Positions 8,171-64,000 of a stretch of 64,000 nucleotides of DNA are shown in pieces. Origin of the DNA: Candidatus Omnitrophota bacterium (lineage in GTDB: Bacteria; Omnitrophota; Gorgyraeia; Zapsychrales; Zapsychraceae). The stretch covers positions 544,351 through 608,350 of the forward strand of contig JBFWOS010000001.1 of assembly GCA_050250375.1 (NCBI GenBank). The letters are read 5' to 3'. The position numbers were made by a program, and so were the translations under genes. The notes below the pieces were generated by a model. It made no database searches, was not told where the DNA came from, and saw only the letters and a list, made by a program, of their open reading frames with translations. Each line of letters opens with the position of its first letter. The first letter of the stretch is position 1.

Positions 8171-9238
8171 TTAATAATCACTCGATCGACGAAGAAGCTG
8201 CTCGAATTCTTCAAGATTCTTGACCTGCATAATAGCATCTTCGTAGGTGATGACACCTTGCTCATACAGTGTCTTCAAGGACATATCCATGGTATGCATT
8301 CCGTATTGAATGCCTGTCTGAATGGATGTGGGGATTTGTTCAACCGCTCTTTCTCGGATCAAATTTCTAATAGCAGGTGTCGCGACCAATACTTCGGACG
8401 CCATAACCCGGCCTTGACCCGATGCCCTGGGTAATAATGTTTGAGAAACAATGCCTTGCAAAGCCGCCGATAGCTGCAACCGAACTTGCTGCTGCTGATG
8501 AGCAGGAAAAACGTCAATAACCCGTTCAATCGTCTGCGCCGTATCAGGTGTGTGCAGGGTAGCCAACACAAGGTGACCTGTTTCCGCGGCCGTAAGTGCC
8601 GTCGAGATCGTCTCAAGATCACGCATTTCACCAACAATAATGACATCCGGGTCCTGACGCAAACATCTCTTTAATGCTTCAGAAAATGAATTTGTGTCAC
8701 TATAAATTTCCCGCTGTTTGATGACAGCTTTGTTGTTTCTGTGGACATACTCTATAGGATCTTCAATACAGATAATCATACAAGAGCGTTCGGAATTGAT
8801 AACATTAACCATTGAAGCTAAGGTGGTTGTTTTACCGGAACCGGTGGGACCCGTAATAAGAACCAGTCCACTCGGTCTACGCGCAAAATCCAGGACCGCC
8901 GGAGGCAAACCCAAGTCTTCAATCGACGGAATATAATGCGGGATGCGTCTTAATGCCGCTTCAACGGAACCCTTCTGGATATGAACATTAACACGAAAAC
9001 GCTCAAGCCCTTCCATAGACAGAGAAAAATCCAATTCACGCTCTTGTTCAAACTTTTCTTTTTGGGTATCCGTCAGAATACCATAAATACATTTCTTTAA
9101 CTCTTCTTTAGATAAGGCGGGCCTGTCGGTTAATGTTAATTTACCGTCCATTCGAAGTACTGGCGGGCTGTTTTCTGTTAAATGGAGATCTGATGCCTTA
9201 CGTTCAATACACAATTTTAGAAGTTCTTTTAGGTCCAA
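8171..9238 (-). CDS. pilT: Type IV pilus retraction ATPase PilT
   Basis: 355 aa; Walker A GPTGSGKTTT; PilT-specific AIRNLIRE motif. Confidence 0.9.
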   Translation of the reverse strand: MDLKELLKLCIERKASDLHLTENSPPVLRMDGKLTLTDRPALSKEELKKCIYGILTDTQKEKFEQERELDFSLSMEGLERFRVNVHIQKGSVEAALRRIPHYIPSIEDLGLPPAVLDFARRPSGLVLITGPTGSGKTTTLASMVNVINSERSCMIICIEDPIEYVHRNNKAVIKQREIYSDTNSFSEALKRCLRQDPDVIIVGEMRDLETISTALTAAETGHLVLATLHTPDTAQTIERVIDVFPAHQQQQVRLQLSAALQGIVSQTLLPRASGQGRVMASEVLVATPAIRNLIRERAVEQIPTSIQTGIQYGMHTMDMSLKTLYEQGVITYEDAIMQVKNLEEFEQLLRRSSDY

Positions 9239-40491: not shown

Positions 40492-40565
<74 letters not shown>

Positions 40566-40804: not shown

Positions 40805-40877
<73 letters not shown>

Positions 40878-59167: not shown

Positions 59168-59566
59168 CTATGGTGTTAAAATACCGCCTGTTGTGACAGT
59201 AAAAACAGTCGTACCTGAAGTACCTAGTGATACAGGCGTAGCTGTAAAGGAATATGACCCAGCTCCCCATGCGCAACCGAAGGTAAATCCGCTACGAGCA
59301 ACACCATCACAATAATCTTCCTGTAAATACGCCGGGACGGCTCCAGTTAAAGAAGACATGTCCAATGGATAATTTCCATTGTTGGCAGTCGCGAATGTTT
59401 CTGATGACGTTGACATTGTACGTAATGTACTTTGTGCCAAGGCATCGTTAGCTGAGATTTTGGCTCTCAGCAAATTCGGAATCGCGATAGCGGCCAGCAG
59501 AGCGATGATCGCGACAACGATCATAATTTCTACCAGCGTAAAACCTTTATTGTTTATCCTTTTCAT
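59168..59566 (-). CDS. pilA: Type IVa major pilin
   Basis: 132 aa; MKRINNKG|FTLVEIMIVVAIIALLAAIAIPNLLRAKISAN; AAGGAGG RBS. Confidence 0.9.
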   Translation of the reverse strand: MKRINNKGFTLVEIMIVVAIIALLAAIAIPNLLRAKISANDALAQSTLRTMSTSSETFATANNGNYPLDMSSLTGAVPAYLQEDYCDGVARSGFTFGCAWGAGSYSFTATPVSLGTSGTTVFTVTTGGILTP

Positions 59567-59704
59567 TTTCCTTCCTCCTTTGGATTTAGAGCCAATAGCT
59601 ACTTATTCAACCAGCGGAGAAAAAAGGAATAATGACTTTTGTTCATTTTGCCAGTTAAGTTTTCGCAACTTATTGACTCAGTTTAAATTAAGTATTTTTA
59701 TTAA

Positions 59705-59733
59705 ATTCTACATACCCTTTTAAAAGGCGTCAA
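59705..59733 (-). promoter_or_regulatory. Sigma70-type promoter TTGACG-17-TAGAAT upstream of pilA
   Basis: Read on minus strand; lies between the upstream terminator and pilA, leader ~130 nt. Confidence 0.45.
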
Positions 59734-59762: not shown

Positions 59763-59798
59763 ACAAAAAAAACCTATTTTCCATCCGGAAAATAGGTT
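59763..59798 (-). terminator. Perfect 12-bp hairpin (AACCUAUUUUCC/GGAAAAUAGGUU) plus U-run; likely expression platform of the upstream riboswitch-like element
   Basis: Plus strand reads aaaaaaaacctattttccatccggaaaataggtt; U-tract is on the minus strand. Confidence 0.75.
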
Positions 59799-59799
59799 A

Positions 59800-59923
59800 T
59801 TGACATCTTTAAAGATGCCTGGGTCGTGGTAACTGGCTACCCTTGCTTACGCGGAGGGCCCTATAGCTTTGTGCCCCAACCTTACGGATGGTTTACCTTT
59901 GTCACATCAACAAACTGTACTAC
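59800..59923 (-). promoter_or_regulatory. Candidate c-di-GMP-I (GEMM) riboswitch aptamer in pilA leader
   Basis: Minus-strand RNA ...AAAGGUAAACCAUCCGUAAGGUUGGGGCACAAAGCUAUAGGGCCCUCCGCGUAAGCAAGGGUAGCCAGUUACCACGACCC... Shares GGYAAACCAUyCG-GNRA-...GGGrCrCAAAGC...GGUAGC...GUUACC blocks with V. cholerae Vc2 aptamer as recalled from memory. Confidence 0.5.
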
Positions 59924-59929
59924 AATCGA

Positions 59930-59958
59930 AGTATAACATCTGACTATCAACCTGTCAA
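59930..59958 (-). promoter_or_regulatory. Sigma70 promoter TTGACA-17-TATACT driving the riboswitch-like RNA
   Basis: Consensus -35 and near-consensus -10 with 17-nt spacer, 11 nt after stop of the coiled-coil gene. Confidence 0.6.
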
Positions 59959-59968
59959 ATAAGCAAGA

Positions 59969-60919
59969 CTACTGCCCCTGAGCCGATTGATCCAGCTTCT
60001 TAATATCTTCTTGGGTCCTATTAAACTTTTCTTTAAGAATACGGTTTTCTTTTTCAATAAAATATAAGTTTTCCATCAATCGTTCTATTTCCTCTTCACT
60101 GATGTCGAAGGCGGCATTTTTTTCTTTAATTTTATGATCGGCCTGGCGTAACACTTTTTCTAATGTATTTCCTTCTGTTCGCAACTCCGAGATCTCCGCA
60201 TGAATCTCATCTAATAATTTGGAATTTCGGCTCTCAAAGCTGTCTAAGTCGCCCAATACTTCTTTTTCGCCAGCTTCAGCCTTCTTATAATGATCATCCA
60301 GCAAGGCCAATTTCTGTTTCAACAAATTATTCTTTTCTTTTAGACTCTCATATCTTTCAAAAGACTTAGCATGATCTTTCTCAAAACCCTGGCTCCTGCG
60401 CTCCAACTCCTTAACGTTCGTCTGAAGAAGGTCTAATTTTCTTTCTAACGATTCATTCTCCGTTGCATGAAAAATGCTCCTCGATTCCTGATCAATTAAT
60501 TGATTCATATGCTGAATTTCATCGGTAACTATGGCTATTTCCTTTAATAACTTTTCCTCATGTTGCGATTTTGCGGGGGTCCTGCTTTTTAAGCTAAGTC
60601 CACCAGCACCCTCAACCCTTAACGGGGCTTCTTCTTTCGCCCGCAATGATGTTTGACCTTCAACCGATTTTGTTCCACGCCCATGTCCGTCTATTTGTTT
60701 TTGCAGTGAATCAATTTTCATCTCCAGAATCTTTATTTCCGAAAGGAGCCATCGATTTCTTTCGGTCATTTCTTTTGAACTCTGCTTTAGCCCGTTCAGA
60801 CTAATGGATACGGATTCCTGTGAAGATACATGCCAGTCCGTTTGGCCCAAAACTGTTTTAGGGACAATGCTGACACCTGCCAGAAAAAAAACAACCACTT
60901 TTGGTTTAATTCTCAACAT
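59969..60919 (-). CDS. Secreted coiled-coil protein of unknown function within the pilus locus
   Basis: 316 aa; signal peptide; long heptad-rich E/K/L/Q region; start 2 nt after pilC stop. Confidence 0.6.
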   Translation of the reverse strand: MLRIKPKVVVFFLAGVSIVPKTVLGQTDWHVSSQESVSISLNGLKQSSKEMTERNRWLLSEIKILEMKIDSLQKQIDGHGRGTKSVEGQTSLRAKEEAPLRVEGAGGLSLKSRTPAKSQHEEKLLKEIAIVTDEIQHMNQLIDQESRSIFHATENESLERKLDLLQTNVKELERRSQGFEKDHAKSFERYESLKEKNNLLKQKLALLDDHYKKAEAGEKEVLGDLDSFESRNSKLLDEIHAEISELRTEGNTLEKVLRQADHKIKEKNAAFDISEEEIERLMENLYFIEKENRILKEKFNRTQEDIKKLDQSAQGQ

Positions 60920-62371: not shown

Positions 62372-64000
62372 TTAATCACTCGCCGTTATACGCAGGACTT
62401 CGTCAAGCGTCGTTTGTCCGTTTAAACACTTATCCATGGCATCCTCAAACAAGGTGCGCATTTCCTTGTTCTTTCTTGCGAATTCCTTGATAACATCGGA
62501 AGATTCGCCCTTAAGAAGAAGATTGCGGACATCATCATCAACTTCCAACAGCTCTGTGATTCCCATTCTTCCCTGATAGCCCAGGCGGCGGCATTTGTCA
62601 CACCCCTTACCACTATAAAATTTTGTATCGGCCTTAACCGGGTATTTCAGGTCATCCAACAAAGCCTTTGGAAGAGCGATTTCCTCGCGGCAAGATTGGC
62701 AAATTCTTCGGCACAGTCTTTGGGCGCTGATTAAGAAAATACTAGAGGCCACCAGAAAAGGCTCAACATCCATGTCAATCAGACGGGTCAAAGCACTTGC
62801 GGAATCATTCGTGTGTAAAGTAGAAAAAACCAACTGTCCGGTTAAAGAGGCTTTTATGGCGATATCCGCCGTTTCTCCATCACGAATTTCCCCCACCATG
62901 ACAACGTCGGGACTTTGACGTAAAATCGATCTCAATCCTTCGGCAAAAGTCAGCCCGATCTCAGGCCTCGCCTGAATTTGAGTTAACCCCTCGACTAAAT
63001 ACTCCACTGGATCCTCAACCGTAATGACATTTTTTTCCACCGTGTTTAATTTGCTGACCAATGAATACAACGTGGTTGATTTTCCGCTACCGGTCGGTCC
63101 TGTCACAAGCATCATCCCAAAGGGTTTTACGGTCGCCTCTTCCAATATTGTGAGCGCCTTATCATTAAATCCCAAGCCCGCCAACCCAACCGAAAGGCTT
63201 CCCTTATCCAGTATCCGCATAACAATCTTTTCCCCGAACGTTGTCGGAAGCATGGAGACCCGGAAATCGACTTCTTTGTTGGCAATCTTCAACTTAAAAC
63301 GTCCGTCTTGGGGCACATGACTTAATGTAATATCAAGACGCGCCATAATTTTGATTCTCACGATAACCGCATTTTGATTTTCTTTGGGGATTTCCAAAAT
63401 GTTGGTGAGAATCCCGTCTATCCGGTATCGAACCTTCATGCCGTTTGTCTTAGGCTCGATATGAATATCCGAGGCTCTTTGTTTGATGGCTTCTTTCACA
63501 ATCAGATTGACCATACGGATGATGGGGGCCTTCTCACTTTCATCCACGGAACTATCCAGGTCTTCCTCCCCATCACTTTCGGAAACAATCTCAAAATCTT
63601 CAACATCAATATCTTTACTAATCTCCGTGACACTATTTTCCGCTTTCAAACCATAGAAGCTATCAATGACTTTCAGTATTTCGTCATTTGTACTCATGAC
63701 GATCTCAATTTCTTTACCGGTTATATTTTTAAGGTCATCAATAATAAAAACATTTAGCGGGTCAGAAACCGCTATCGTCAATGTTTCATCCAGTAATGAC
63801 AACGGGATAATCTGGTACTGCCGTGCAATGCGTTCGGGAATGGTTTCCTGCAAAGCAGGATCAAACTTATATTTGGATAAATTAATAAACGGGATGTTCA
63901 ATTCGCGGACTAACAAGACCAGCAAATCTTTTTCCTTAATGAGCCCTTTCTCAACAATTGCTTTCTCTAAAGTAATGCCTTTACGTTTCTGAAAGACCAT
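62372..64000 (-). CDS. pilB: Type IV pilus assembly ATPase PilB (GspE family); N-terminus at or beyond window edge
   Basis: GSPII_E N-domain; Walker A GPTGSGKSTT; tetracysteine Zn motif; ATG occupies the last 3 nt of the window. Confidence 0.9.
   Translation of the reverse strand: MVFQKRKGITLEKAIVEKGLIKEKDLLVLLVRELNIPFINLSKYKFDPALQETIPERIARQYQIIPLSLLDETLTIAVSDPLNVFIIDDLKNITGKEIEIVMSTNDEILKVIDSFYGLKAENSVTEISKDIDVEDFEIVSESDGEEDLDSSVDESEKAPIIRMVNLIVKEAIKQRASDIHIEPKTNGMKVRYRIDGILTNILEIPKENQNAVIVRIKIMARLDITLSHVPQDGRFKLKIANKEVDFRVSMLPTTFGEKIVMRILDKGSLSVGLAGLGFNDKALTILEEATVKPFGMMLVTGPTGSGKSTTLYSLVSKLNTVEKNVITVEDPVEYLVEGLTQIQARPEIGLTFAEGLRSILRQSPDVVMVGEIRDGETADIAIKASLTGQLVFSTLHTNDSASALTRLIDMDVEPFLVASSIFLISAQRLCRRICQSCREEIALPKALLDDLKYPVKADTKFYSGKGCDKCRRLGYQGRMGITELLEVDDDVRNLLLKGESSDVIKEFARKNKEMRTLFEDAMDKCLNGQTTLDEVLRITASD

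Follow-up and report, generated by a model that had tools for sequence, protein, structure and literature searches.

A candidate class I c-di-GMP riboswitch, predicted to act as an OFF switch, upstream of a type IVa pilin gene in Candidatus Omnitrophota

Introduction

The Omnitrophota are uncultured, so that their regulation can be read from sequence only. In a 64-kb stretch of a Candidatus Omnitrophota genome (the window; window coordinates are used throughout), a complete type IVa pilus cluster lies on a single strand, and between its coiled-coil gene and the gene for its major-pilin homologue sits a short unit on the minus strand that a first-pass annotation had read as a riboswitch for c-di-GMP (cyclic diguanosine monophosphate) with a terminator platform. 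The question raised by this locus is whether c-di-GMP controls the pilin gene through this unit and, as the annotation had left the direction open, whether it would turn the gene on or off. We assign a probability of roughly 65% to the reading that the element is a class I c-di-GMP riboswitch, forms its own transcription unit in the pilus cluster and acts as an OFF switch for upstream-initiated pilin transcripts, with high c-di-GMP probably stopping read-through into the pilin gene.

A class I c-di-GMP aptamer in the pilus cluster

The whole window was scanned on both strands against the Rfam 15 covariance models. Only three matches rose above their gathering scores: two tRNAs and a c-di-GMP-I riboswitch (RF01051), the latter at 59825-59907 on the minus strand with 58 bits against a gathering score of 35, an E-value of 9.5e-9 and coverage of model positions 1-87 of 87. 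The class I identity that the first-pass annotation had put forward for comparison with RF01051 in Infernal was thereby confirmed over the full model, and the class II c-di-GMP riboswitch (RF01786) had no match in the window. The folding z-score is -3.0, and the match lies far outside what chance would give. The parts of the aptamer are as follows:

59825-59907, minus strand: c-di-GMP-I (GEMM-I) aptamer, from the RF01051 match, covariation and de novo fold
59904-59903 with 59828-59827, minus strand: outer P1
59896-59895 with 59872-59871, minus strand: inner P1
59891-59886 and 59881-59876, minus strand: P2, closed by the GUAA loop at 59885-59882
59868-59831, minus strand: P3, with an A-U-A bulge on its 5' strand at 59864-59862, near the base
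59897, minus strand: G, equivalent of Vc2 G20, from the Rfam consensus alignment
59870, minus strand: A, equivalent of Vc2 A47, from the Rfam consensus alignment
59829, minus strand: C, equivalent of Vc2 C92, the first C after P3 in AGUU-ACC

Read from 59907 to 59825 on the minus strand, the aptamer blocks are GGUAAACCAUCC-GUAA-GGUUGG, GGGGCACAAAGC, GCUAUAGGGCCCUCCGCGUAAGCAAGGGUAGCC and AGUUACC. The blocks named in the first-pass annotation all fall within this interval, although its rendering "CCAUCCG[GUAA]" counted one G twice. The P2 loop is GUAA and P3 carries a bulge near its base, which is the combination of the receptor-less GEMM type; GYRA loops usually accompany this receptor-less, bulged type (PMC1950547).

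In Vc2, G20 contacts one guanine of c-di-GMP and A47 is a ligand-contacting adenine (PMC5888326, PMC4744006), while C92 forms a Watson-Crick pair with the second ligand guanine (PMC5888326, PMC9262584; C87 in Cd1). Vc2 numbers were assigned to model columns from the Rfam consensus and the Vc1 spacing given in PMC4744006. On this assignment, the equivalents of the universally conserved interhelical C-G pair (Vc2 C44-G83) would be C 59873 and G 59837, the latter in the conserved AG bulge of P3, and both agree with conserved letters of the consensus; C 59873 sits 3 nt 5' of the A47 equivalent, a spacing identical to that of C36 and A39 in Vc1 (PMC4744006).

The contact positions also bear on whether the aptamer could serve another ligand, such as 3',3'-cyclic GMP-AMP (cGAMP), sensed by GEMM-Ib aptamers, or the ligand of the "c-di-GMP-I-GGC" variant (RF03167), either of which we consider very improbable. 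In a permissive search RF03167 scored 58.9 bits on window 59824-59906, just under its gathering score of 59, and won the clan competition; Geobacter GEMM-I-like aptamers before pilus genes sense cGAMP (PMC9262584), and A is found at the G20 position in two related loci (L036 and L070). However, the window carries G at the position 20 equivalent, where cGAMP types carry A, and A at the position 47 equivalent, where the RF03167 consensus has G (core hexamer ACAAAG in the window, GCAAAG in the RF01051 consensus and GCGAAG in the RF03167 consensus), and this G and this A are common to nearly all pilin-linked copies. With G, A and C at the contact positions, the aptamer is therefore of neither the cGAMP type nor the GGC variant, and the latter assignment was rejected because its diagnostic G is A in the window and the score lies below the gathering score. 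The high RF03167 score is due to the short P3 apex and the extended outer P1, not to the diagnostic base. To our knowledge, no ligand has been assigned to the RF03167 variant class. By every sequence-level criterion tested the element is a genuine class I c-di-GMP riboswitch, and its aptamer would be expected to bind c-di-GMP.

Conserved pairing and linkage to pilin genes

Eighty related loci were retrieved with the adjacent PilC as anchor (PilC identity 45-89%), nearly all of them labelled Candidatus Omnitrophota or misassigned Planctomycetales metagenome-assembled genomes. Copies of the aptamer were gathered by sequence search and then with a covariance model built from two seeds, the window and its closest relative (L001). 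This yielded 54 copies, every one of them downstream of pilC and on the same strand as that gene. In the alignment of these copies 97.5% of cells are paired and 15 of the 21 pairs change on both sides, so that the covariation in homologous loci on which the first-pass reading had been made to depend is present. When the 3' partners were slid by 1-3 columns as a control, pairing fell to 28-46%. As the 54-copy alignment had been fitted to the model, the test was repeated with a plain MAFFT alignment and a de novo RNAalifold fold, which yielded P2 and P3 again, along with compensatory changes. Copies of the form GGU...ACAAAG have U-A as their inner P1 pair, and those of the form GGC...GCAAAG have C-G. 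An alternative long-range helix proposed by RNAalifold, GGUA/U(R)CC, was rejected, as it leaves C-A mismatches in two of the three GGC-type sequences, whereas the Rfam P1 pair co-varies perfectly.

Among the 60 pilin genes of these loci with the common N-terminus GFTLVEIMIVVAI, 47 carry the aptamer at most 800 nt upstream, and it is on the same strand each time. The remaining 13 are extra paralogues or belong to more distant lineages, and no replacement riboswitch was found at Rfam gathering thresholds in the distant lineages lacking the aptamer. Because pilins in these distant lineages stand without it, the association marks one large clade and not the whole phylum.

Promoter, linker and terminator of the unit

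The elements flanking the aptamer are the following:

59930-59958, minus strand: riboswitch promoter of the sigma-70 type, with -35 TTGACA (59958-59953), a 17-nt spacer ending in TG and -10 TATACT (59935-59930); 11/12 consensus
59802-59819, minus strand: linker hairpin GGCAUCU-UUAA-AGAUGUC, a 7-bp stem in every fold
59763-59798, minus strand: intrinsic terminator, a perfect 12-bp stem (59798-59787 with 59782-59771) with a GGAU loop and U6-G-UU to 59763

The promoter claimed in the first-pass annotation (TTGACA-17-TATACT) is present with a TG extension in addition, and transcription of the riboswitch unit would start near 59923. Such a promoter stands upstream of 47 of the 54 aptamer copies, its -10 being TATACT in 36, and the distance from the end of the clade consensus TTGACA-17-TGnTATACT to the modelled aptamer region is about 19 nt. 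Consensus promoter matches in the window (4 found against 2.1 +/- 1.6 expected from shuffles) are not significant alone, and the promoter calls are credible because they are conserved across loci, not from their frequency in the window.

The perfect 12-bp hairpin and U-run claimed earlier are likewise found, with the sequence AACCUAUUUUCC-GGAU-GGAAAAUAGGUU (59798..59771, minus strand), and the terminator contributes about -15 kcal/mol. Nearly every homologous copy likewise has a hairpin and U-run after the aptamer, and the terminator stems are unusually conserved in sequence (CCUAUUC...GAAUAGG). From the predicted start to the U-run the terminated RNA would measure about 160 nt; the structured RNA was correctly recognised in the first-pass annotation, but its length was put too low at 130 nt.

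Between aptamer and terminator, the linker hairpin contains the 14-nt palindrome CATCTTTAAAGATG (59817..59804, minus strand) that had been singled out earlier; it is there, but only as part of a non-conserved hairpin. The closest relative, L001, preserves the linker stem by compensatory changes (GGUAUCU...AGAUACC), and other loci have unrelated small hairpins or none. Across the clade the linker is 10-40 nt long, unconserved, often A-rich and sometimes with a small hairpin. The palindrome was considered as a protein-binding DNA site and rejected, since its sequence is not conserved and only the RNA stem is preserved in L001.

A predicted antiterminator directed at P2

The terminator begins 26 nt past the 3' end of the aptamer and has no nucleotide in common with it, and homologues show the same layout. 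In the full-length minimum free energy (MFE) structure of -49.3 kcal/mol both are present. As aptamer and terminator form together, stabilisation of the aptamer by ligand cannot keep the terminator from forming, and this speaks against an ON switch. The 5' arm and loop of the terminator, however, resemble the reverse complement of P2, and within them lies one further feature:

59781-59787, minus strand: predicted antiterminator segment CGGAUGG, running from the final nucleotide of the terminator 5' arm through the loop to the second nucleotide of the 3' arm

This segment is complementary to the P2 5' strand CCAUCCG (59891-59885) over a 7-bp helix. For a transcript ending just past the terminator loop, the P2-invading MFE is -41.5 kcal/mol compared to -34.1 kcal/mol for the aptamer-like fold, and the freed 3' strand of P2 pairs with the aptamer 3' tail.

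The complementarity is conserved with matching changes in homologues, in which CCAUUCG occurs with CGAAUG and CCACUCG with CGAGUG; in several homologues the complementarity extends to the GNRA loop, as with CCUUACGG in L016. Among homologues, P2 and the terminator 5' arm plus loop form a duplex of -14.7 kcal/mol on average, compared with -7.7 +/- 3.0 kcal/mol when the arms are shuffled. Cognate duplexes (-14.7) are also stronger than non-cognate ones (-13.3), the cognate mean being reached in none of 10,000 permutations, in permutation and shuffle tests that ignore shared ancestry. At the decision point at least 6 nt of the terminator 5' arm plus loop are paired into the aptamer in 31 of 35 homologues, with 8.7 nt on average paired with P2 against 0.76 for shuffled segments.

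Two other candidate antiterminators were rejected. A classical antiterminator from the P1 3' strand or the linker is disfavoured by linkers that lack conservation besides being short and A-rich, and in only a few homologues does the terminator 5' arm pair with the P1 3' strand. A pairing of the terminator CCUAU with the AUAGG of P3 fails because a variable aptamer position (U/A/G/C) shows no co-variation with the constant terminator.

In the computed structures, aptamer and terminator do not overlap and the predicted antiterminator would exclude both. A conserved alternative pairing that destroys aptamer and terminator together points to the logic of an OFF switch, as in Cd1 (Cdi-1-3), the class I riboswitch before the Clostridioides difficile flgB flagellar operon, which is a termination OFF switch (PMC9262584, PMC6366702). 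All seven functional C. difficile class I switches are of this kind (PMC6366702). The opposite direction, in which c-di-GMP would promote read-through into the pilin gene as for the type IV pili of C. difficile, has precedents of its own: c-di-GMP induces C. difficile pilA1 via a class II riboswitch, Bc2 of Bacillus thuringiensis is a class I ON example (PMC6366702), and many GEMM-I terminators overlap the second aptamer hairpin and are predicted to be ON switches (PMC1950547). Here, though, the terminator stands 26 nt clear of the aptamer and coexists with it in the full-length MFE structure, and the alternative pairing would abolish both at once in the manner of Cd1 (PMC9262584), so that we regard an ON switch as improbable.

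According to the preferred OFF-switch reading, the strong sigma-70 promoter at 59958-59930 would start an RNA whose first ~100 nt fold into the GEMM-I aptamer. With no ligand, the nascent terminator 5' arm and loop would invade P2 (CGGAUGG:CCAUCCG), the terminator could not form, and transcription would carry on across the pilin promoter and leader to the pilin gene. Once c-di-GMP is bound, P2 would be locked in the folded aptamer, the terminator would form, and the ~160-nt RNA would be released. In this way c-di-GMP would turn off the share of pilin expression that comes from upstream-initiated transcripts, namely those of the riboswitch promoter and probably also those of the pilB-pilC-coiled-coil operon.

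A second promoter and the pilin leader

Downstream of the terminator, three features lead up to the end of the pilin gene:

59705-59733, minus strand: second promoter-like site TTGACG-17-TAGAAT, 10/12 consensus; the predicted own promoter of the pilin gene
59567-59698, minus strand: pilin leader of about 130 nt, with the moderately conserved blocks GAGUCAAUAAGUUG and GUCAUUAUUCC and the Shine-Dalgarno sequence AAGGAGGAAGG
59168-59566, minus strand: type IVa major-pilin homologue, 132 amino acids, starting MKRINNKGFTLVEIMIVVAIIALLAAIAIPNLLRAK, Pfam N_methyl 7.7e-9; the target of read-through

The unit is upstream of the pilin gene as the first-pass annotation had it, but not "directly" so, since 198 nt and the second promoter-like site lie between the terminator and the pilin ATG (59566). 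A site of the form TTGACA-16/18-TGnTAGAAT occurs 150-250 nt (mostly 160-210) before the pilin ATG in about 36 of 44 related loci, and in several others, among them L003/L004, L026, L044 and L011, no such site is detected by a consensus scan. This second promoter would provide riboswitch-independent pilin mRNA. Because it is conserved, the riboswitch would gate only part of pilin transcription; the idea of pilin control via a terminator switch is retained, now with a predicted OFF direction and with an effect on pilin expression that is expected to be partial.

The same arrangement admits a serious competing explanation, which we rate below the OFF-switch reading and consider unlikely overall: the unit might mainly yield a short stand-alone aptamer RNA, the pilin gene being transcribed essentially from the downstream promoter. 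c-di-GMP might then set how abundant or stable this RNA is, and the RNA in turn might have a trans-acting role, serve as a buffer for c-di-GMP or shield the pilin promoter from upstream transcription; pilin mRNA would not be gated to any meaningful extent. A self-contained unit with a near-consensus promoter, a strong terminator and no open reading frame (ORF) would suit such an RNA, as would the conserved second promoter after the terminator in about 36 of the 44 loci, and Vibrio cholerae tfoY offers a precedent with its short Vc2-containing small RNAs (bioRxiv 10.1101/617340). However, a trans-acting RNA would not need the strict position and orientation upstream of the pilin seen in 47 copies, a constitutive terminator would not need a conserved, co-varying antiterminator, and in the several loci with no detectable second promoter the pilin would need read-through.

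The pilin leader, about 130-190 nt long across the clade, had no Rfam match. Blocks shared by leaders in about 35 loci are GAGYCAAUAGGUUA, CGUNAUUAUYCUU and GGCUC, and a hairpin abuts but does not cover the Shine-Dalgarno sequence. The leader block AAUAGGUU is identical to the terminator 3' arm. In many loci (L019, L038, L014, L056 and L006 among them) a Shine-Dalgarno-like AAAGGAGGUG lies within the 16-18 nt spacer of the pilin promoter, far above chance; the spacer of the second promoter in the window (59727-59711) has only AAAAGGG. A leader helix that hides the Shine-Dalgarno sequence and is perhaps opened on read-through by the Shine-Dalgarno-like GGAGG in the second-promoter spacer was considered and dropped. 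RNAalifold found no structure in the pilin leaders, and pairing of the Shine-Dalgarno sequence is lower in the real leaders (0.39) than in shuffled ones (0.57). As the Shine-Dalgarno sequence is not sequestered, the idea of a decoy in the spacer AAAGGAGGUG loses its basis.

Points that weigh against an OFF switch

Several points count against the preferred reading. Ligand binding, termination and switch direction are all predictions, and RF03167 matches the aptamer as well as RF01051 does and wins the clan competition, though its diagnostic G is absent. The comparison of cognate with non-cognate duplexes treats related sequences as independent and its significance is overstated. In the window, the antiterminator helix takes in the loop but no more than the apical 3 bp of the 12-bp terminator stem, invasion of a pre-formed, GNRA-capped 6-bp hairpin may be slow, and nearest-neighbour folding omits the tertiary aptamer fold and co-transcriptional kinetics. 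Owing to the conserved second promoter, much pilin mRNA may bypass the riboswitch, as in V. cholerae tfoY (bioRxiv 10.1101/617340). No diguanylate cyclase or phosphodiesterase gene was found among the window ORFs scanned: GGDEF, EAL, HD-GYP and PilZ domains were all absent from these 26 ORFs, a result that is uninformative for the rest of the genome.

A more far-reaching combination of these elements can also be envisaged, and we put it forward as speculative and on balance doubtful. The locus would represent an unusual clade-wide module with a P2-invading antiterminator, two products and, in sister loci, a possible new GEMM-I subclass. Its separately promoted and terminated unit would be stacked on the pilin promoter, and the antiterminator would attack P2, not P1 or the 3' pocket strand, with invasion possibly nucleated on the GNRA loop, which would be hidden once the ligand-bound aptamer docks. 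If this were true, c-di-GMP would decide whether the product is a long pilin mRNA or a short, ligand-bound RNA that is abundant and perhaps functional itself.

The pilus cluster and the rest of the window

The pilus cluster runs in the order PilB (T2SSE and MshEN domains), PilC (T2SSF), coiled-coil protein, riboswitch, pilin and then assembly genes; after the pilin come three more pilin-like or DUF4900 proteins, PilM, PilN, PilO, a small protein and the secretin. The gene immediately upstream of the riboswitch is:

59969-60919, minus strand: coiled-coil gene, 316 amino acids, an ORF that is syntenic but fast-evolving in related loci

The riboswitch -35 starts 10 nt past the stop codon of this gene (59969), and no terminator was detected in the window between that stop codon and the riboswitch promoter. 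As the pilB-pilC-coiled-coil operon has no detected terminator, the riboswitch terminator probably ends its transcript or conditionally extends it.

The nearest solved relatives of the pilin are Geobacter PilA-N (2e-11), the PilA of entry 6xxd and other major PilA/PilE pilins. It has the class III signal peptide, N-methylation motif and hydrophobic alpha1-N helix and is encoded inside a pilus assembly cluster, so that the earlier call of a type IVa major pilin stands as far as homology and context go; the protein is predicted to be the major subunit of a type IVa pilus.

The PilB ATPase (window 62372-64000, minus strand) has an N-terminal MshEN domain (74.8 bits). The MshEN domain family binds c-di-GMP, and c-di-GMP may therefore reach the same pilus machine at the protein level too. 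A 355-amino-acid T2SSE-family ATPase of the size of a PilT-like retraction ATPase is encoded at window 8171-9238 (minus strand), 50 kb from the pilus cluster. The two tRNA genes lie at window 40492-40565 and 40805-40877 (minus strand; 62.9 and 67.5 bits), and the remainder of the window is housekeeping on the same strand, with rpoB/rpoC-sized ORFs, ribosomal protein S1, TyrRS, EF-P, Obg and RNase E/G.

Variant aptamers in related loci

Two related loci have an A in place of G at the G20 equivalent, the change that marks cGAMP-sensing GEMM-Ib: L036:5450-5470 (AAAAGUAAACC) and L070:12087-12157 (AAUAGCAAAC). The L070 copy departs from the usual nucleotide at A47 as well and does not precede a pilin gene.

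Expanded aptamers with two extra hairpins occur at L016:8013-8158, L052:4086-4232, L054:9019-9179, L018:~8303-8470, L024:8288-8450, L036:5450-5586, L072:4250-4380, L013:7734-7865 and L064:8967-9129. In one group the hairpins sit in the P3 5'-strand bulge, GCUAU[CCCGAC..GUCGGG]A[CCCGA..UCGGGG]GAGGG, and in another they separate P2 from the P1 3' strand, GGGGC[hp][hp]ACAAAG, where hp is a hairpin. The Rfam score of expanded aptamers goes down to 37-41 bits or below threshold, and they may represent an undescribed GEMM-I subclass.

A second, divergent GEMM-I copy (GGCAAACCUGCCGUGAGGCAGGG) is found at L009:7926-8019, L014:7928-8040 and L013:5234-5306, in each case before an ORF with a Flp/Tad-pilin-like N-terminus (..GQNM[IT]EY..), so that a second pilus type may perhaps also be riboswitch-controlled. 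The divergent L009 copy scores 73 bits on RF03167. Rfam clan competition also places in RF03167 two aptamers with a canonical site and A at the variant position, L009:10657-10736 (61.2 bits, above the gathering score of RF03167) and window 59824-59906, and automated annotation of this clade may for this reason mislabel aptamers as the variant class.

Significance

The association of GEMM with pilus genes is already known (PMC1950547), as is riboswitch control of a major pilin, by a class II element in C. difficile (PMC6366702). What is new here is the host lineage and the fact that, across a large uncultured clade, a class I switch is directly linked to a type IVa major pilin, together with the predicted OFF direction, P2-directed antiterminator and stacked-promoter layout. 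No prior description of this arrangement was found in the literature searched on Omnitrophota/Omnitrophica with riboswitches or pili. If the prediction holds, class I c-di-GMP riboswitches would be extended to direct control of a major type IVa pilin, and the locus would tie second-messenger signalling to the type IV pilus of Omnitrophota in a concrete and testable way. It would also illustrate, in a natural setting, an expression platform directed against P2 and the stacking of a riboswitch unit on a second promoter. Existing concepts are left unchallenged by the element, which is of modest interest as an entry point to c-di-GMP signalling and the regulation of pili in Omnitrophota, and as a small self-contained RNA of about 160 nt it lends itself to in vitro work that needs no culture.

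Comparison with known systems

The two precedents cited in the first-pass annotation each differ in kind from the present element: C. difficile pilA1 in riboswitch class (II, PMC6366702) and Geobacter pilM in ligand (cGAMP, PMC9262584). The pilA1 riboswitch, Cdi-2-4, shares a c-di-GMP riboswitch with a terminator platform directly upstream of a type IV major pilin (PMC6366702, PMC4744006), but it has the class II fold (RF01786) and the direction is ON, c-di-GMP inducing pili. The Geobacter pilM riboswitch (GEMM-Ib) has a GEMM-I-type fold and exerts transcriptional control of type IV pilus genes (PMC9262584); unlike the element described here it is a cGAMP sensor with A at the selectivity position, acts as an ON switch with mutually exclusive aptamer and terminator, and controls assembly genes, not the major pilin. 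GEMM has been tied to pilM, pilO, pilQ and pulF since the discovery of the motif (PMC1950547).

Cd1 resembles the element in aptamer class, in acting through termination and in an aptamer and terminator that coexist and compete with an antiterminator (PMC9262584), and its target is likewise a motility or surface-appendage operon. The Cd1 antiterminator attacks the 3' pocket strand (PMC9262584), whereas the predicted target here is the 5' hairpin P2. Cd1 lies in a 5' untranslated region with no reported promoter before the operon, whereas here a second promoter follows the terminator, and its direction has been demonstrated experimentally, whereas the direction here is predicted.

In the layout of promoters, Vc2/tfoY of V. 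cholerae is comparable: a class I aptamer has promoters on both sides, only upstream-initiated transcripts carry the riboswitch, and c-di-GMP is an OFF signal for these transcripts (bioRxiv 10.1101/617340). Two tfoY promoters precede Vc2, and most of the mRNA comes from two others that are located within Vc2 or downstream of it; the upstream promoters are strong, yet yield little full-length mRNA and mostly short Vc2-containing RNAs (bioRxiv 10.1101/617340). Those short RNAs arise from ligand-dependent protection from degradation and not from intrinsic termination, whereas here there is a canonical terminator with a U-run, and the target is the regulator TfoY instead of a pilin. Bc1 of the Bacillus cereus group also joins a class I aptamer to a long expression platform with intrinsic terminators (PMC11218506); it has two of these and is in practice unresponsive to c-di-GMP, whereas the Omnitrophota element has one terminator and a conserved predicted antiterminator.

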